A stretch of 64,000 nt of DNA from a virus (IMGVR_UViG_3300035659_001474:21110-85109); one strand, 5' to 3'. Positions 2,310 through 34,021 are shown, counted from the first letter of the stretch. Translations and numbers: made by a program. Notes: generated by a model not told the origin, from the sequence alone.

Positions 2310-4067
2310 CTAACGACTCATGGCTTTAGCTTGTTCTAAGGCTCCCCAATACTCTTTGTTACTTGGCTGTATTTTACACAATCTCTCAATAGCACGAATA
2401 ATCATAGCCTTGTTATCACTGTTTAACATACCTCTTCCGATCATAGCATATCCGAATCCTTTCATCAAATCTTCGCCCGTAGGTCCGCTTTTATGTATTT
2501 CTAGAAGTTCCACGTCAGTTGGTTCGCGATACTTCGTGCCCTGGAAGAAACTTGGTTTTAACTTCTCGCCTATAGCTATTTTCAAAAATTCAGCTTGGTT
2601 TTTTGCAATGCGTGACTGACTCTTACTTTTCAAGAACTGATAGAGCAATCTCACACCATAACCTGTAGCATTATGTGGTAAATCACCATGTGAATGATCT
2701 ATCTCTTCGCACATGTCTTCATTAAATGCAACATTAGACATATCAACATGTGCCCAAGGTATATTTCCTACAAACTGTTTTATGAAAGATGCACCCATAG
2801 CTGATTTTGCTTGTTGTTGTTCAAATGAATTCTTGAGATCAGCGATATCACTTTCTACTGATTTGTTGTATTCTGGATATAATGGTAATCTCCAAACTCT
2901 TTCATTAGCAACTTTTCCAGCTCTATATAAATCATTAGCCAATTGGTTATTGTTTGCGAATAATCCAGCAGCTGATTTACCAAATATATTGAGAATTGTC
3001 TTTGTCAGCGTAGCAAGATCAACTAAAACTGTTGGTTTAAACTTCTCAACACAATAAGAAACTGCATCTGCAAGAATGAGGCGACCTTCAGCATCAGTGT
3101 TATCAATTTCGACTGTTTTACCACTGTAAGACGTGTAAACATCACCTGGTAAATACGATCGACCATCTATAGAATTATATGTCAATGGCAGCACACCAAC
3201 AATGTTGACAGGTAATTTCAATAATGCTATAGCTTTCATGACCCCTATAACTGCAGCAGCTCCGGCAACATCTTTTCGCATCGTCCTGATACTCTCAAAT
3301 TCTTTTAGTGCAACTCCGCCAGTGTCAAATATGATTCCTTTGCCAACTAAAGCAATACTTGAAGTAGATGATTTGTTACCAGTATATTGAATAGTGACTA
3401 TTCGTGCAGGATAGGGAGAACCCTCAGCAACAGCCTGAATCAGTCCGAAGCGTGACATTAATTCGTCAGGTAGTATTTTAACGTCAAGACCAATAGTCGT
3501 CAATTCATTTTTGATATAGTTAGCAAATATATCAGGATGCTTGTCTTTTGCATTACGATTGACCAAGTCTCTGGCATAATTTGTGCATTGACAAACTATC
3601 AATGATTCTTTAAGCTCATTATCTGTAATTTTATCTGTAATGATTTCAATTGTAGATAGATGATGGTATTTTTTGGTCTTGTATTGGTCAAATTTGTATG
3701 ATCCTAAAACTATTCCTTCAACACATGCAATAGTTAATGATTTGTCAAACCAATCAGGAATGATTATAGAAAGTGTTGGCCAATTCAAATACTCTGCTCG
3801 TTGGATACCATAAGCTACAGTCTTACTTACTATTGCAGCTGTTGCAGTCTCACCGCAGCCACAGCATATTGTCAAGATATCGCCTTCAGTCCGAACATTT
3901 ACTTCGTCTACTTCAGCATTGAAATCAGCTGCGTTGTCTTGAGTTCTATAAAAAGTCAATCTTGTTTTAGGCATTGACATATCAGACGGTTGACTTGTCA
4001 AATGTATGTCTATTTTTTGTATTGCTAATTTGACGAATTCACTCTGTATTTTAGACAAGTGTTTCAT
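2310..4067 (-). CDS. M17-family leucyl aminopeptidase carrying the MKHLA leader
   Basis: Contains the M17 signature NTDAEGRL plus GKGIIFDTGG and DVAGAAAVIGVMKA, which match the LAP catalytic domain. N-terminus MKHLSKIQSEFVKLA. Confidence 0.8.
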   Translation of the reverse strand: MKHLSKIQSEFVKLAIQKIDIHLTSQPSDMSMPKTRLTFYRTQDNAADFNAEVDEVNVRTEGDILTICCGCGETATAAIVSKTVAYGIQRAEYLNWPTLSIIIPDWFDKSLTIACVEGIVLGSYKFDQYKTKKYHHLSTIEIITDKITDNELKESLIVCQCTNYARDLVNRNAKDKHPDIFANYIKNELTTIGLDVKILPDELMSRFGLIQAVAEGSPYPARIVTIQYTGNKSSTSSIALVGKGIIFDTGGVALKEFESIRTMRKDVAGAAAVIGVMKAIALLKLPVNIVGVLPLTYNSIDGRSYLPGDVYTSYSGKTVEIDNTDAEGRLILADAVSYCVEKFKPTVLVDLATLTKTILNIFGKSAAGLFANNNQLANDLYRAGKVANERVWRLPLYPEYNKSVESDIADLKNSFEQQQAKSAMGASFIKQFVGNIPWAHVDMSNVAFNEDMCEEIDHSHGDLPHNATGYGVRLLYQFLKSKSQSRIAKNQAEFLKIAIGEKLKPSFFQGTKYREPTDVELLEIHKSGPTGEDLMKGFGYAMIGRGMLNSDNKAMIIRAIERLCKIQPSNKEYWGALEQAKAMSR

Positions 4068-5687: not shown

Positions 5688-6542
5688 TCAAAAACACTTA
5701 TTGTAATAATCTTCATACTCTTCTACTGCAATAGCACTAACATTCTCAACTATTGCAGCCATGTTGCAACCATATAGTCCAGCGCAGCTAAATGATCCTA
5801 TTTCTAATAACCAATAATCATCGTCTTCATCTTGACAAACATCAATCGTATACACTGGATCAGGATTATACTTAACATTTGCTATCTCTTGCGCTTTAGT
5901 CCAAGCTAACGAATCACTTCTAACTTCTTGATACTGTGATTGTCCATTAATCTTATATAGTGAACCCGTGATGATTTTCTCTCTAGCAACTATGAATCTC
6001 CATTCAGCTTTAATATTCTTAGGACTTGAAATTACAACTATTTGGTCTAAGTCTGCATTTGCAAAACTTAATGCACAATCCCAGTCTTTTTCAAACGTAT
6101 TTTTAATAAACACTTGACCCGTGAAAGTCTTAAATCCAGAACTTGGTCGAATAAAAATAGCATCGTACATAGGAAACAATTCATCTTCCGACAATTGAAA
6201 GTGCAATATTCTGCGCACAACATCACCGATTGGTAACATAATATAGTCATTATTGAATAAGAACTTACCTAAATGTGCATAATATGACATGCACTCATAC
6301 ATTTTGAGATTGAGCCAACAATTCGGCACCCACTTCTTCTCTCTCAACAATTGTCGTGCCAATTGTAATGAAGCTTGGACAATTACACACTCTTGTATAT
6401 TTGGGTATACATTGTATGAGCCGCTTTGGAATGGTATGTACTTGATAATTTCACATGTCATGCCTTGTCGTTTGACTTCAGCTGCCAGCTCGTCAAACTT
6501 ATTATCTTGCGCAAAGTCTTCAATCAACCATTTTGGTTTCAT
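5688..6542 (-). CDS. hypothetical protein, possibly an ATP-grasp-fold enzyme
   Basis: The C-terminal EWRFIVAREKIITGS...YWLLEIGSFSCAGLYGCN weakly resembles ATP-grasp B/C-domain motifs. Confidence 0.3.
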   Translation of the reverse strand: MKPKWLIEDFAQDNKFDELAAEVKRQGMTCEIIKYIPFQSGSYNVYPNIQECVIVQASLQLARQLLREKKWVPNCWLNLKMYECMSYYAHLGKFLFNNDYIMLPIGDVVRRILHFQLSEDELFPMYDAIFIRPSSGFKTFTGQVFIKNTFEKDWDCALSFANADLDQIVVISSPKNIKAEWRFIVAREKIITGSLYKINGQSQYQEVRSDSLAWTKAQEIANVKYNPDPVYTIDVCQDEDDDYWLLEIGSFSCAGLYGCNMAAIVENVSAIAVEEYEDYYNKCF

Positions 6543-8372: not shown

Positions 8373-9383
8373 TTATTCGTCTTCTTCACTAGCTTTCATG
8401 TTATGAATTGGTTTGATCTTATTCAGAATTTTTGCTGTAGGTTCTATAGCTTGCTCAATGAATGTTGAATCTTTGTACGCTCCTGGAGACTCATCAAGAG
8501 TAGCTTGTCCTACCGATGTAGAATAAATGCCTTCCATTTGTGATTTGAATGTCTCTACACTTAATTTTCTTTTAGCTTCTCCACGACTCAAAACTCTACC
8601 GGCTCCATGTGGCGCAGAAAAATTCCATTCTGGATTTGATTTACCTTCACAAACCAAAATACCATCTCTCATATTAAATGGAATAATCATGCGTTCACCA
8701 ATATAAGATCTAATAGCACCCTTTCGAATAATGAAGTCATGAAAATCGATAAAATTATGAACAGTGTCTATTTGATCTACGGGTGTCACTTTCAAAATGT
8801 CACATATAATAGACACTATATATTTTCGATTAACTTCAGCATAAATCTGAGAAAATATCATGTCAAACAAATACCCGGCAGCATCTTCTCCTTCTAACCA
8901 TTCACATCCCTTCATATCAATGTTAGGTTTAGCAACTGCTTTCAAAGCTTTGATCTTAGTATATAATTCTTTACCATCTTGAACAGTTTCTTTCAAGACT
9001 TTAATTTGCTCTTGAATAATAGACTGTCTGTCACATTTATGAAATTTCTCAGCTTTATTTTGCCAGTATTCACAAATACGTTTTCCAAAATTGCGACTGC
9101 CAGTATGAATCGTAATCCAATAATCTCCGTCATTACTAATGCCTGTTTCAATGAAATGGTTTCCTCCACCAATAGTGTCAATAGAATTTATTGCACGTCG
9201 AGTACTTCCACCAGTTGACTCATATTTCTCTAAAAACCAATTCATATCGTATTGAACTGGAGAAATGTCCCCAAATTTCTCTCGATATGCTAAAGCAAAT
9301 TTCTGAGCCAACACATTAGCCTGATGCCACGGAAATTCCTTTCTCCATATTGATGACAGAATTTTCATGCGTTTGCATGCCAA
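8373..9383 (-). CDS. rtcB: RtcB RNA ligase, C-terminal two thirds (in a different frame from the N-terminal part)
   Basis: RtcB motifs GGGNHFIE, HTGSRNFG and SAPHGAGR. The frame already matches RtcB at 'CKR', upstream of the annotated TTG start. Confidence 0.7.
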   Translation of the reverse strand: MACKRMKILSSIWRKEFPWHQANVLAQKFALAYREKFGDISPVQYDMNWFLEKYESTGGSTRRAINSIDTIGGGNHFIETGISNDGDYWITIHTGSRNFGKRICEYWQNKAEKFHKCDRQSIIQEQIKVLKETVQDGKELYTKIKALKAVAKPNIDMKGCEWLEGEDAAGYLFDMIFSQIYAEVNRKYIVSIICDILKVTPVDQIDTVHNFIDFHDFIIRKGAIRSYIGERMIIPFNMRDGILVCEGKSNPEWNFSAPHGAGRVLSRGEAKRKLSVETFKSQMEGIYSTSVGQATLDESPGAYKDSTFIEQAIEPTAKILNKIKPIHNMKASEEDE

Positions 9384-10785
9384 ACGGCACTCTTTGCCTA
9401 ATTCTATGATCTAACAACTCAAGAGTAATAGAAAGACTTTTTCCTATATTAAATGAAGTCATCCCGCAATTATGAACAAATACACCTGCAGCTAGTGCAA
9501 AGTTGCTATACTCTTCAATTGTCAAACAATATACATCTGTTGGTAAACAATCTATTAGTTCAATATTTTTTACAGAATGATTTTGTACCCGTTTAAAGTC
9601 TTTGAAAACTAATTTTAGATGCGCTGCATCAGTTTTTAATGCTTTTAGATGATTAAAGACACCAAAAGCGCTTTTAACTTGTGCATGACATATTGGACAT
9701 TCATATAGTCTATTACCTATTTCTGTAGACTTCTTTATTCCTTTTTCTGATTTAGAATAAGCAATCAAATATTCTCTGCCTCGTTTTCCGGCTAATTTTG
9801 CCATTTCTTTAAATTTATCTGTTTTACAAAATTCTTGAAATGTCTTAGCTGCTCTAATTTTTAGATTTTTGGCAAATTCTGGATCTTTGTGTAATGCACT
9901 CATTTTTTCTGATGACATTTTTGAAAATCTATCTCTATGCTTTTGCCACGTCCTTGTCCAACCGCCACTACCATCTTTATTTGCGATTAATGTATGACTA
10001 GCATGCAAAGTTCGATGATTAGCCCACGACATTCTGACAATATTTGTAGGATTATTATTATACTTATTAAAGTCATCGTGATGTCGAATAAATTTCGATG
10101 TTAATGCAACCATTCTATGACGAACATTGTAATCGTCCGCAAGCAAATGTATAAAATCATATAAATTTGTATATGGATTGTAAACTACAAAATACTCTTT
10201 TAACTTCCAACATTTATTAATCTTTGACAATTGTTCACGAACAACATCTTTCACTTTCACAATATATAATGGTAGTAATGACTGATTAACTGTTAATTGA
10301 TCAGCACGTGTTTCTTCATTGTTTCTCGTATAAAAAATCTGATCAATAGTAGAATAAATTGTTTCATTATTATCTAATGTAACTTTCGCAAGTCGATCGA
10401 CTGTTCTTGTTTTCTTGACAGATAATATTTTCGTAATTACAATATTGCCATGATCATCTTTAGCAAACACATAATTATCTTTATTAGCATTAAAATCATC
10501 TAATAATTCTAACATAGTTAATTCTTTATTATTTGCTAATTTAACTTTTGTATCTTGAGTAAAACATCCAATATCTACGCCCACAACATTGGGAATTGTT
10601 TTATCAGTCATTGGCATCGTAAATCCAATAACAGATCCTTTGCCTGCATGAGTATCAGGCATGATTGCAATTGGATTTGTAAATGCTGGATGATTTACAA
10701 AATTAGTAATCTGAGCAGCGCAAGACTGTTCAATTTGATCAATCATGACTTTTGCAGTTGTGTATTTGCCAGGATATTCAATCAT
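9316..10785 (-). CDS. rtcB: RtcB RNA ligase N-terminal extein, a ~366-aa intein, and a 50-aa C-extein segment
   Basis: MPDTHAGKG and VGVDIG are followed by an intein with an N-terminal Cys (CFTQDTKV...) and the C-terminal ...VFVHN|CGM junction. The C-extein reads CGMTSF..IRQRVPFG, matching RtcB DIGCGM...VPHG. Confidence 0.7.
   Translation of the reverse strand: MIEYPGKYTTAKVMIDQIEQSCAAQITNFVNHPAFTNPIAIMPDTHAGKGSVIGFTMPMTDKTIPNVVGVDIGCFTQDTKVKLANNKELTMLELLDDFNANKDNYVFAKDDHGNIVITKILSVKKTRTVDRLAKVTLDNNETIYSTIDQIFYTRNNEETRADQLTVNQSLLPLYIVKVKDVVREQLSKINKCWKLKEYFVVYNPYTNLYDFIHLLADDYNVRHRMVALTSKFIRHHDDFNKYNNNPTNIVRMSWANHRTLHASHTLIANKDGSGGWTRTWQKHRDRFSKMSSEKMSALHKDPEFAKNLKIRAAKTFQEFCKTDKFKEMAKLAGKRGREYLIAYSKSEKGIKKSTEIGNRLYECPICHAQVKSAFGVFNHLKALKTDAAHLKLVFKDFKRVQNHSVKNIELIDCLPTDVYCLTIEEYSNFALAAGVFVHNCGMTSFNIGKSLSITLELLDHRIRQRVPFGMQTHENSVINMEKGISVASG
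9469..10566 (-). mobile_element. intein inserted in the RtcB DIG|CGM motif, with an internal putative homing-endonuclease region (possibly HNH-like)
   Basis: The intein's splice-junction residues are a Cys at residue 74 and a terminal HN before the +1 Cys. The 366-aa insert contains a central basic, His/Cys-containing domain (ECPICHAQV..FNHLKA). Confidence 0.6.
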
Positions 10786-11788: not shown

Positions 11789-12442
11789 TCAAAATTCCTT
11801 TGGATCGTAATCCAAACATTCTTTCTTCAAACGATTTAGTTTCTTTGGACAATATGGCATGTCGAATCCAACTTCTTTAAGTATTACTACATTTTTGCAA
11901 TTTTCACATCGTTCTATTGCATATTCTAATAGTCGAGTTTCCCATTGTTCATCTTCCTGATAAGCTCGACAAAAATCTGGAAATAGTTCGACTTTTTGCG
12001 CACATCGATAAATGGTCTTACCTATTTCTATATCGATCATCTCATGATATTCACAATTTCCACAGCGATCCATTGCTGCATCACGACTTTCATGCTCTAC
12101 TGAATGCATAAGATAATCAGATTTACCCTCATCTGATTCTAGGTAAGTTTGGGCATCTATACCAGCTGACTTAAGCAATTGAAAAGACTGATCAACAAAT
12201 TCTTGCTCTCGTGTCAAAATTTCTTCAGGTGTTTGTTCTAATGTCTTAAATCGAGTTAATCGATACACTCGACTAATCAACTGTGCTTTCAATTCTGCCG
12301 GTGTTTTCTGTGAATTCAAAAAGTTAGTATAACATTGAGGTGAACAGCATCTATAGTTAACTAACATCTCACCATAGACACGAATTATTTCTTTGACATT
12401 AAATTGTTTACTGCAGACTCTACAAGTTAATTGGTTTTGCAT
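11789..12442 (-). CDS. CxxC-rich zinc-binding hypothetical protein (real start MQNQLTCRVC)
   Basis: The ORF-track entry 11789..12712 runs on through a tRNA gene. The tRNA translates as ...LVEQQLLDLRVVGSNPARG, a typical tRNA read-through artefact. The first ATG downstream of the tRNA is at 12440-12442. Confidence 0.45.
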   Translation of the reverse strand: MQNQLTCRVCSKQFNVKEIIRVYGEMLVNYRCCSPQCYTNFLNSQKTPAELKAQLISRVYRLTRFKTLEQTPEEILTREQEFVDQSFQLLKSAGIDAQTYLESDEGKSDYLMHSVEHESRDAAMDRCGNCEYHEMIDIEIGKTIYRCAQKVELFPDFCRAYQEDEQWETRLLEYAIERCENCKNVVILKEVGFDMPYCPKKLNRLKKECLDYDPKEF

Positions 12443-12474
12443 ATAGATATAATCAGTTGAAAAAGCTATGAAAA

Positions 12475-12547
12475 TGCCTCGAGCCGGATTCGAACCGACA
12501 ACACGCAGATCTAGAAGCTGCTGTTCCACCAATTGAACTATCGAGGC
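12475..12547 (-). tRNA. tRNA with anticodon CUA (amber suppressor); isotype not assignable
   Basis: Manual fold has a perfect 7-bp acceptor stem (GCCTCGA/TCGAGGC), a D arm with GG, the anticodon loop TT-CTA-GA, a 5-nt variable loop, the T loop TTCGAAT and discriminator A. CCA is not encoded. Confidence 0.8.
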
Positions 12548-12554
12548 ATTCTCT

Positions 12555-12860
12555 TCATGCAAGTGGTAGAGATTTGAAAATCTCACCAGTGTCATAGCAA
12601 GCCATAGCTGTTGGTCTATTCTCCTGATCTGGTTCAATAAAAGTCGTAGACTGTTTATTTTGCAGACATAAGAGACTTGACCATTGCTCAATTCCACTTG
12701 CAAAACGGACACCTAAAAATATCAAATGCCCATTATTCCACTGATGAAATATTTCAGGATATCTCAGTGCAAAAGCTGCCAATGCATGAGCACCCTGCAC
12801 ACAACGATATGTTTCATCCAGATCACTACGCACAAGCACATACATCTTTGGCTTGTCCAT
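12555..12860 (-). CDS. PTH2-type (archaeal/eukaryotic-type) peptidyl-tRNA hydrolase-like protein
   Basis: KMYVLVRSDLDETYRCVQGAHALAA matches the PTH2 motif KMVLVVRxDLxMGKGKIAAQCSHAA. The start is probably the internal MDKPKM; the ORF track gives 12555..12938. Confidence 0.5.
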   Translation of the reverse strand: MDKPKMYVLVRSDLDETYRCVQGAHALAAFALRYPEIFHQWNNGHLIFLGVRFASGIEQWSSLLCLQNKQSTTFIEPDQENRPTAMACYDTGEIFKSLPLA

Positions 12861-14679: not shown

Positions 14680-14951
14680 CTGGCGAGAAGGGACTCGAAC
14701 CCCCAACCATCTGGTTACACTTATCCACATATTTTTATGTGGCGTGGACTTTCTCTTCACCTTGTCTATTACTAGATTTAGGTGCACCGTGTAAAGTCTC
14801 TACACATAAGAGCTTTTTTTACTCTCTTGCTCGGGATTGCCATAGATAGATTCCTTAGGTTTCCCCGACTTAGCGGCGTGTTCATCTAAATATTTCTATT
14901 TAGAGCTGCGTTTACCCACAGCCAGATGCTCTGCCATTGAGCTACTCGCCA
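14680..14951 (-). tRNA. tRNA interrupted by a group I intron in the anticodon loop. Exon 1 is 14918..14951 and exon 2 is 14680..14717. The best reading is tRNA-Asn (GUU); tRNA-Thr (UGU) is the alternative.
   Basis: The 5' half reads TGGCGAG-TA-GCTCAATGGCAGAGC-A-TCTGG-CTGT. The 3' half reads TAA-CCAGA-TGGTT-GGGGGTTCGAGTCCCTT-CTCGCCA-G. The acceptor pairs perfectly (TGGCGAG/CTCGCCA) and the anticodon stem is TCTGG/CCAGA. The splice site follows a U, and the intron ends in G. Confidence 0.7.
14718..14917 (-). ncRNA. group I self-splicing intron (IC3-like, tRNA anticodon-loop type)
   Basis: The intron contains GGGGAAACCTAAGG, a GGCAATCCCGAGCAAG Q-like element, a GTGTAGAGACTTTACACGG R/P7-like element, CCTAAATCTAGTAATAGACAAGG and GAAAGTCCACG. 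All are close to the Azoarcus and Anabaena tRNA intron cores. A 6-bp P1 can form between exon GGCUGU and intron GCAGCU. Confidence 0.7.
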
Positions 14952-33295: not shown

Positions 33296-34021
33296 CTACA
33301 CTGCTATTATCTTCAATTTTCTTCTTATCAATTTGACGTCCATTAATCTTCTAGTAATAGTCATTCGTTTTTGTTTTATCTTTTTTCCCTTATTTAATTT
33401 GACACGACTACTAATTAGCAGTCTTGTTTTTAAAGAATGTGTTTTACCAAAAAAATTATTATTTTCTCCTCTTCGATTTAAACTCATTTTCTTTCTAGTT
33501 TCTAAAGAATGCCTAAATCCTTTTACTGAAGCTCTAATTTTTGCTTTAGTTTCTTCAGACACTATTCTAGTCTTATTAGATTCAATAATTCGTTGTCTAT
33601 GTCGTTTAGTGAGCTTTTTACCATAAAATGGATTATTTGAACCGTTTCTTTCAACTGTCGCAAGTAAACCTTGACCTCCATCAGTTCTATTTACTAGTGG
33701 CCCTTTATTCATGTCAGCACGACCAATTTGTCTTATTAAAGAGATTTCTACTTTGCAACTTTTATTATCAGTAAGACCATGACGTAATATAGTAATAATG
33801 GGTTGTTTTCCTGATCGCAGAATTTTTTTAATTTTATTTATTTTGTGATTACGTATTGAAAAGTTTAATTGTTTTTTTGCACTTTGTAAATGACTTTTAT
33901 ATCGTTCATTAATACCTTTACCAATGTAAAATGGTTCATATAAAAAACAAATACTTCGATATGTATATTGCCCAGGTTTATTAGGATTCAAATATGCATA
34001 AACATAAAACTCTTTTTTCAT
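33296..34021 (-). CDS. GIY-YIG homing endonuclease with NUMOD repeats
   Basis: YVYAYLNP...PFYIGKG (GIY-YIG), then repeated SEETKAKIRASVKG / ETRKKMSLNRRGENN (NUMOD3-like). Confidence 0.8.
   Translation of the reverse strand: MKKEFYVYAYLNPNKPGQYTYRSICFLYEPFYIGKGINERYKSHLQSAKKQLNFSIRNHKINKIKKILRSGKQPIITILRHGLTDNKSCKVEISLIRQIGRADMNKGPLVNRTDGGQGLLATVERNGSNNPFYGKKLTKRHRQRIIESNKTRIVSEETKAKIRASVKGFRHSLETRKKMSLNRRGENNNFFGKTHSLKTRLLISSRVKLNKGKKIKQKRMTITRRLMDVKLIRRKLKIIAV

Follow-up and report, generated by a model that had tools for sequence, protein, structure and literature searches.

A probable class 1 intein with a nested HNH endonuclease in the frameshifted rtcB gene of a phage-like genome

The 366-codon insert in the rtcB gene described here is very probably a genuine class 1 intein, with Cys1, a terminal His-Asn pair and Cys+1. 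Nested within it is a putative HNH endonuclease resembling I-HmuI, and its site is that of the P. horikoshii RtcB intein. The window, which is the whole stretch of DNA analysed, comprises 64,000 nt of the viral sequence IMGVR_UViG_3300035659_001474:21110-85109, and positions are counted from its start. Its content is phage-like (a DnaB-like helicase, an NAD-dependent DNA ligase, helicases, an FtsK-like protein and a tRNA cluster), and the host is a large phage-like genome. The rtcB gene has a DUF7694 gene and an HD-domain gene upstream, and a radical SAM gene downstream. An ORF at 9316..10785 on the minus strand encodes 489 aa: 73 aa of RtcB, then the insert, then CGMTSFNIGK.... Translation of the insert, which runs from 10566 to 9469 on the minus strand, gives an open frame of 366 codons (CFTQDTKVKL...AAGVFVHN) with no stops; the plus strand of 9469-10566 has stops throughout. 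A sequence-only reading of this DNA had placed an intein here, between ...VGVDIG and CGMTSF. Its coordinates for the insert are exact, with the minus strand as the coding one, and its identification is borne out by profile matches, the HINT fold and the His-Asn/Cys+1 junction. The features of the gene are as follows.

10567..10785, minus strand: rtcB N-extein, 73 aa, ending ...PNVVGVDIG (Pfam RtcB match at ORF aa 25-85)
9469..10566, minus strand: probable intein, 366 aa (Cys1...His365-Asn366), in frame with both exteins (PF14890, TIGR01443, fold)
10252..10566, minus strand: N-terminal splicing lobe, aa 1-105, with blocks A (C1-F-T-Q-D-T) and B (pLDDT 95-97, family alignment)
10339..10350, minus strand: block B core T73-I-D-Q76 (Gln codon CAG at 10339-10341)
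10003..10083, minus strand: HNH catalytic motif H162 H163...N171...N175...H184...H188 of the nested homing endonuclease
9619..9705, minus strand: C2H2-like zinc-finger motif Y288-E-C290-P-I-C293...H306...H316 (weak Pfam zf-C2H2_4, relatives, model)
9469..9579, minus strand: C-terminal splicing lobe, aa 330-366, with blocks F and G (pLDDT 95-97, family motif, TIGR01443)
9340..9468, minus strand: rtcB C-extein part 1, CGMTSFNIGK...VINMEK, in the intein frame (aligned to 4dwr)
9338..9342, minus strand: frameshift site, one extra base in 'gag aaa g/ga att tcc' (sequence and relatives)
8373..9339, minus strand: rtcB C-extein part 2, +1 frame, EFPWHQ... to the stop (Pfam RtcB, PHROG 1075)

The N-extein aligns with intein-free RtcB of phage contigs; its terminal Asp is a metal ligand and its Gly is the -1 residue. 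Part 2 of the C-extein matches Pfam RtcB (E 1e-40, profile positions 134-425) and PHROG 1075, tRNA splicing ligase (E 7e-83), and shares up to 70% identity with RtcB proteins of 434-450 aa that have no intein. The G+C content of the intein is 29.4% against 35-37% for the exteins, and its GC3 is 17% against 23-35%. A Megablast search of GenBank phages with the whole gene gave no matches; relatives are reachable at the protein level only. For annotation, the gain is that two adjacent 'RtcB' ORFs and an insert become one interrupted gene.

Curated profiles and the predicted fold both identify the insert as an intein. The Pfam PF14890 (Intein_splicing) score of 55.7 bits (E 6e-15) exceeds its cut-off of 35.8, and TIGR01443 (intein_Cterm) scores 24.4 bits at aa 344-366 against a cut-off of 15.6. 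The insert also matches NF052663, 'intein-containing RtcB family protein', at profile positions 78-310 with 99.6 bits; the whole-protein cut-off of 1050 is missed because the gene is split. An AlphaFold2 model of the insert, built on a 23-sequence alignment, has a pLDDT of 82 overall and of 95-97 in the HINT lobes (aa 1-100 and 330-366). When this model was compared with the PDB by Foldseek, the top 40+ matches were inteins and Hint domains (E 2e-8 to 1e-3), including PI-PfuI, Ssp DnaE, Mtu RecA and Npu DnaE. A phmmer search of PDB sequences with the intein gave a weak match in the N-terminal lobe to the NrdJ-1 intein chain 8ubs and nothing else.

The splicing blocks agree with this assignment, with one exception. 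The sequence-only reading had proposed an alignment to blocks A, B, F and G: A, F and G are present, and block B is present but has Gln in place of its His. The block A nucleophile is Cys1 (CFTQDT), in a column that is invariant across the family. Blocks F and G read ...DVYCLTIEEYSNFALAAGVFVH365-N366/C+1, with Cys347 at F:4, and contain the family-invariant motif NFAL-x-x-GVFVHN. Class 3 inteins have no Cys, Ser or Thr at position 1 and carry Trp at B:12, Cys at F:4 and Thr at G:5. A class 3 (WCT) intein, a candidate prompted by the Cys347 at F:4, was rejected: Cys1 is present, and Trp and Thr are absent, with Phe78 two residues after the block B His position and Val364 before His365.

Homologues of the insert are numerous: a word search found 45, and a full HMMER search over 1.84 billion representatives found 2501 at E<=1e-3. 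The homologous module is 300-390 aa long, begins with C-F-T-x-D-T and ends with N-F-A-L-x-x-G-V-F-V-H-N, followed by Cys or Ser. It occurs in RtcB and in unrelated hosts, namely GyrA, GyrB, dCTP deaminase, a papain-like protease and a gp25-like baseplate protein, the homologues in unrelated proteins being 25-34% identical across the full 366 aa. It is therefore a mobile module and not a domain of RtcB. Other contigs have mini versions of 152-179 aa, without a central domain, at this same position in RtcB. Together with reduced central regions, these mini-inteins establish that decay occurs in the intein family.

The centre of the insert was expected to be a basic His/Cys region consistent with a homing endonuclease, and an HNH motif and a CxxC...H zinc-finger-like motif (aa 288-316) are both found there. 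The first reads R-H162-H163-D-D-F-N-K-Y-N-N171-N-P-T-N175...H184...H188, and its His and Asn columns are invariant or at least 90% conserved. The AlphaFold2 model has a strand-strand-helix arrangement at aa 159-197, the beta-beta-alpha-metal motif. PHROG 7545 (HNH endonuclease) matches aa 160-196 with E 9e-5, and Pfam HNH_3 is found in 10 of the 23 aligned relatives (best E 4.8e-12). In a Pfam scan of the window's own central region HNH_3 falls below significance, so that the HNH assignment is made by homology, through the family alignment, PHROGs and fold comparison. Where HNH and LAGLIDADG had been named as the motifs to look for, these comparisons support a putative homing-type endonuclease of the HNH type, resembling I-HmuI, and not LAGLIDADG. 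The core is followed by approximately 130 mostly helical residues, which end in Y-E-C290-P-I-C293-x12-H306-x9-H316. The helical region before the zinc finger is presumably DNA-binding. Pfam zf-C2H2_4 matches the finger with E 0.04-0.2, below its cut-off, and the model places a hairpin and then a helix there. The finger of relatives is canonical (C-x2-C-x12-H-x4/5-H), and the x9 spacing of the last His in the window is atypical.

Splicing and homing by the RtcB intein are predicted from sequence, and the proposed course of events is as follows. (i) The precursor would be translated through the intein. (ii) The HINT domain would form the Gly(-1)-Cys1 thioester and pass the N-extein to Cys+1. (iii) Cyclization of Asn366 would free the intein and join ...VDIG to CGM..., rebuilding the RtcB active site. 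(iv) During co-infection the HNH enzyme, free or embedded, would nick or cut an intein-less rtcB near GTNGAYATHGGN/TGYGGNATG, directed by its DNA-binding part, the helical region and the zinc finger. The intein-less junction in, for example, loci L002 or L006 reads ...GTTGAYATTGGA/TGYGGNATG.... (v) Repair off the intein-bearing copy would insert the intein, completing homing.

In block B, Thr73 is present, and the expected His is Gln76, giving T-I-D-Q instead of TxxH. A first alignment has His in all 26 aligned homologues. Over 350 N-lobe domains of the family the column holds His in 344, Gln in three, Glu in one, Cys in one and a gap in one. Besides the window, the members without a block B His are P0245, P0311, P0167 and P0177. 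Gln is found in P0245, a complete RtcB of 711 aa with Gly(-1), and in P0311 (648 aa), the host ORFs of both being intact; Glu is found in P0167, a complete RtcB of 815 aa. The block B His is described as the single most conserved intein residue and, with Gly at -1, as essential in Ssp DnaB; the few natural inteins that are without it, a very small subset, compensate for its absence (PMC6333167). Gln76 and Gly(-1) occur together in the window, and so splicing may be impaired. Gln76 makes splicing competence less certain; confidence in homology is unaffected. Judged from its recurrence in the family, Gln76 may be a tolerated variant, and the balance between tolerated variant and lesion is even.

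The state of the host gene is a separate matter. The sequence-only reading had also reported a frameshift, and there is indeed a +1 shift downstream of the intein, with two overlapping ORFs. One extra base lies approximately 43 codons past the intein ('gag aaa gga att tcc gtg') and moves RtcB into the +1 frame: the 0 frame ends at a TAA at 9316-9318, and RtcB goes on in the +1 ORF at 8373..9383 on the minus strand. With one base removed, the protein reads ...INMEKEFPWHQANVLAQKF... / ...VINMEKEFPWHQANVLAQKF..., which matches the relatives (INMEKEFPWKNVN, VIHMKNDFPWHDANVLAQKF, VIHMEKEFPWHQATTLAQKF). The RtcB motifs D-I-G/C, GGGNHF, HTGSR, VHNF and PHGAGR are all present, the last four retained in part 2 of the C-extein (with PHGAGR as SAPHGAGR). 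They are divided between two frames, so that full-length RtcB cannot be made from the gene as sequenced. An intron as the cause of the break was rejected: the ORFs overlap and the alignment is continuous minus one base, so the break is an indel. TAG recoding, suggested by a tRNA with a CTA anticodon, is irrelevant to the rtcB gene, which has no in-frame TAG (its stop is TAA), and there is no global sign of it, TAG ending five of the 42 long ORFs. On balance, the frameshift is read as a genuine and recent mutation that inactivates the gene, which is somewhat more probable than an error.

The strongest rival account holds that intein and gene are both fully functional: Gln76 would be tolerated or compensated, the frameshift would be an error or a minority variant, and active RtcB would follow splicing. 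It draws on the intact host ORFs that carry block B Gln (P0245, P0311) or Glu (P0167), on the few natural inteins that compensate for an absent block B His (PMC6333167), and on the intact RtcB catalytic and HNH motifs, the 366-codon intein frame also being open at 29% G+C. The indel weighs against it. The extra base is common to the JGI and Logan assemblies, the Logan assembly of SRR11721627 being 100% identical over 9.6 kb with the extra base included, and the two probably derive from the same reads. The site (aaagg) contains no long homopolymer, so a systematic Illumina indel is unlikely, and no split occurs there among the closest relatives listed and read in sequence. The steric compensation described in PMC6333167 is moreover unavailable with Gly(-1). 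The account as a whole is therefore regarded as unlikely. It is doubtful to a similar degree that the inteins of the window, P0245, P0311 and P0167 splice without the block B His by means of Gln or Glu together with Gly(-1). If they do, the phage would still make RtcB, provided that the extra base is erroneous or confined to a minority variant.

The opposite extreme, in which the whole locus is a decaying pseudogene, is slightly less probable again. Here H76Q would have ended splicing and RtcB production, the frameshift and drift of the finger would have followed, and a dead remnant would be left. Three deviations do fall within approximately 1.3 kb (Gln76, the +1 frameshift and the finger spacing as compared with P0166 and others), and the reduced central regions and the mini-inteins at the same site demonstrate decay in the family. 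The 366 intein codons and both RtcB segments are nevertheless without stops despite AT-rich DNA, the catalytic residues of RtcB and HNH are all retained, and block B Gln or Glu is found in intact genes as well. Any decay would therefore need to be very recent. A programmed frameshift, in which RtcB output would be regulated by tRNA-Lys slipping +1 from AAA onto AAG within 'gag aaa gga', is highly improbable: a one-base slip on A-AAG does yield the conserved peptide ...NMEK-EFPW... exactly, but the A site has no slow or stop codon, there is no obvious stimulator, relatives read in sequence have no split at this position, and a simple one-base insertion suffices.

The identification as an intein is reinforced by the position of the insert. 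Cys+1 is the metal-binding Cys of RtcB, and selfish elements typically target catalytic sites. The 437-aa joined extein, made by removing the insert and deleting one base, can be aligned over its whole length with phage RtcB that has no intein. By tblastn, residues 1-431 of the 437 are covered in intein-free phage RtcB, the best value among GenBank phages being 45%, and six IMG/VR loci provide intein-free relatives at 48-62% identity. The matches listed include at least 120 RtcB relatives, which share up to 70% identity across the C-terminal 321 aa; nearly all of these are approximately 435-455 aa long and have no intein domain. Intein-free alleles such as L002-L006, P0047 and P0049 run uninterrupted through VGVDIG-CGM (or DVS-CGM, DIN-CGM). 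The comparison with such alleles, which had been suggested as a means of defining the homing site, thus places it within a contiguous DIG-CGM. A lineage-specific RtcB insertion domain, previously named as the alternative to an intein, or a non-splicing BIL/Hint domain is so improbable that it can be set aside, since its sole support in the sequence is the absent block B His, and it is contradicted by the presence of the module in six or more unrelated host proteins, bounded throughout by C1...HN/C or S, by the intein fold and the mini versions, by curated intein models above their cut-offs, by most close RtcB relatives, which have no insert and are contiguous over the site, and by a position that is the published RtcB splice junction; BIL domains are not known to occupy catalytic residues in conserved enzymes where a +1 nucleophile follows.

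Cys+1 aligns with Cys98 in D95-I-N-C98-G of P. horikoshii RtcB (numbering counted on the 4dwr chain), and the splice junction of that protein lies at Cys98 (PMC4150793); the insertion site is therefore the known RtcB intein site. RtcB has been listed among intein-bearing proteins with 27 cases in bacteria and 10 in archaea (PMC4760082), and it is among the intein-invaded proteins of actinophages (bioRxiv 10.1101/2025.01.02.630785). The statement that inteins occur in archaeal RtcB genes was thus correct as far as it went; it understated prior knowledge by leaving out bacteria and phages. With inteins at this cysteine already known from archaea and bacteria and listed in actinophages, the present one is a clean but ordinary example.

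Several relatives have features of their own. In the closest RtcB clade, P0048 (locus L010) has a different insert at the same site, ending ...ITGN/CGM; Pfam, NCBIfam and PDB sequence searches with this insert were empty, and the contig is incomplete. Relative L008 has a 240-nt intervening sequence at GGG/NHF, to which an Rfam search found no match. TGA recoding in L007 has no support within its 9-kb locus.

The intein is one of several selfish elements in a single phage genome. A group I intron and a GIY-YIG endonuclease had also been claimed for this DNA, and both are present. The intron lies at 14725-14929 on the minus strand (58.8 bits, the gathering score being 50; detected only when scanning was more permissive) and interrupts a tRNA gene at 14681-14950 on the same strand. 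The endonuclease is free-standing and is encoded by an ORF at 33296-34021 on the minus strand, with GIY-YIG and NUMOD3 domains. Inteins of the HNH type were already known in the 1990s, and the RtcB intein adds little that is new in kind. The block B Gln is its only mildly unusual point, and makes it one of the few natural block B Gln/Glu variants suited to tests of His-independent splicing.

Among known systems, the P. horikoshii RtcB (PH1602) intein and the families NF038162 and NF052663 share the host protein and the exact point of insertion, before the metal-binding Cys and with Cys+1. Splicing of the P. horikoshii intein rebuilds the active-site D-x-x-C motif, as that of the window's intein would. 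The hosts differ, being archaeal in one case and a phage-like contig in the other, and the intein part of NF052663 is matched only partially. The wider architecture is that of the HNH-type inteins of cyanobacteria and phages, in which the HINT domain is interrupted in frame by an HNH endonuclease (Dalgaard et al. 1997, as cited in bioRxiv 10.1101/2025.01.02.630785). GyrB inteins from cyanobacteria and Chloroflexi are among the homologues of the window's intein, which is set apart from the HNH type by the block B Gln, the Cys at F:4 and a C-terminal C2H2-like finger. A 2025 survey of actinophages reports HNH inteins from no more than four types of host protein, of which RtcB is not one (bioRxiv 10.1101/2025.01.02.630785). 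The endonuclease itself resembles I-HmuI of phage SPO1 (PDB 1U3E) at a sequence identity of approximately 16%. I-HmuI is an intron-encoded HNH enzyme, free-standing within a group I intron, whereas the window's enzyme is embedded in an intein.

Inteins of the Tko CDC21-1 type are, like the window's, naturally without the block B His (PMC6333167). They have a bulky Leu(-1) and a characterized compensating residue, in contrast to Gly(-1) and Gln in the window. If the His-independent set described above does splice, it would represent a mode of compensation unlike that of the Tko CDC21-1 type and the mechanism of the bulky -1 residue.

The closest relative, P0166, is an intact RtcB-intein-RtcB ORF of 809 aa, found on seven contigs; for the two largest places listed their length is 326-336 kb, the size of a jumbo phage. 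Its intein lies at the same site (residues 74-438) and shares the HNH and zinc-finger layout. It differs in its canonical block B (T-V-D-H), its canonical finger spacing and its unbroken frame. The two inteins are 52% identical over their full length and the exteins 64% identical; the intein is thus more diverged than the host gene. This divergence, together with a G+C content lower than that of the flanks, is consistent with a mobile element that has had its own history.

Two related contigs have other sequence at or directly before the metal-binding cysteine of RtcB, which forms the +1 residue of the window's intein. The rtcB of locus L007 (IMGVR_UViG_3300028602_000005, a contig of 254,910 bp) carries no intein. 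A TGA at L007:4217-4219 aligns with the codon for this cysteine (VGVDGS*GML) and is the only in-frame stop of the gene. An 8-bp hairpin begins 16 nt 3' of it, and no evidence of general TGA recoding was found at the locus. The TGA could encode selenocysteine, be a nonsense mutation or result from an error. A different, unrelated insert is found at L010:1-590, encoding part of the RtcB protein P0048 (JGI 3300001213), and ends ...WIMRRNGQIAITGN directly before CGML. P0048 belongs to the RtcB clade nearest the window, with 69% identity in the C-extein. The insert is incomplete, as the 1768-bp contig ends inside it; it contains the LAGLIDADG-like strings VMADGHL and FNWDGTR, and sequence searches of Pfam, NCBIfam and PDB returned no match. 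Possibly it represents another intein, independent of the first, in the same position of RtcB.

Loss of the highly conserved block B histidine, replaced by Gln76 in the window's intein, recurs in four other members of the intein family. Glutamine occupies the position in P0245 (an intact RtcB of 711 aa with Gly at -1) and P0311 (648 aa), glutamate in P0167 (an intact RtcB of 815 aa) and cysteine in P0177. P0167 and the window's intein also share the string FY-x-RNNEE after this position. In the C-terminal motif, block F, position 4 of the window's intein is cysteine (aa 347, window 9526-9528). The family alignment places cysteine here (VYCLT) in all members from RtcB and dCTP-deaminase hosts, the exteins of which begin Cys-Gly, and aspartate (VYDLT) in members residing in GyrA, GyrB and several other hosts. 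A redox or disulfide role for the block F cysteine together with Cys1 or Cys+1 would be speculative.

Further features of the window include two tRNA genes, a group I intron, a free-standing endonuclease-like gene and cargo genes near rtcB.

Additional features of the window
2310-4067, minus strand: full-length M17 leucyl aminopeptidase (PF00883, E 5e-103)
5688-6542, minus strand: R2K-type ATP-grasp protein
12474-12548, minus strand: tRNA, anticodon CTA, reading UAG and labelled tRNA-Pyl (ARAGORN; Rfam tRNA, 58 bits)
14681-14950, minus strand: intron-split tRNA gene (ARAGORN fold after intron removal)
about 14725-14929, minus strand: group I intron RF00028 within that tRNA gene (58.8 bits vs gathering score 50)
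33296-34021, minus strand: free-standing homing-endonuclease-like ORF, 241 aa (GIY-YIG PF22945, E 1.5e-11; NUMOD3 PF07460, E 1.2e-17)

The aminopeptidase and ATP-grasp genes lie a few kb from rtcB and are unusual cargo on a phage-like contig. The GIY-YIG/NUMOD3 ORF is flanked by a Band-7/NfeD pair on one side and a transporter-like gene on the other. The tRNA(CTA) is a candidate amber suppressor. TAG still terminates 5 of 42 long ORFs, which gives no sign of genome-wide TAG recoding. The ORF at 11789..12712(-), which overlaps this tRNA, is probably spurious.

Scanning the full window in the default 'gathering' mode missed the group I intron, which a permissive scan detected. Once it is excised, ARAGORN places the 5' and 3' ends of the tRNA at 14950 and 14681; its identity varies with the exact splice site, His(GTG) being the commonest standard call.

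The metal-binding motif GGGNHF is uninterrupted in the window's rtcB. The predicted proteins of several intein-bearing RtcB relatives (P0004, P0002, P0003, P0006, P0012 and P0014) stop just after its GGG. In P0004 (locus L008), an intervening sequence separates ...GGC GGT GGT from AAT CAT TTT (NHF...).

Intervening sequence in the rtcB of L008
L008:6690-6929: 240-nt insert at GGG|NHF

As in group I introns, the last base of the 5' exon is T and the last base of the insert is G, but an Rfam search with this insert gave no match at E<=1. Possibly the gene carries here another selfish element, acting at the RNA level.
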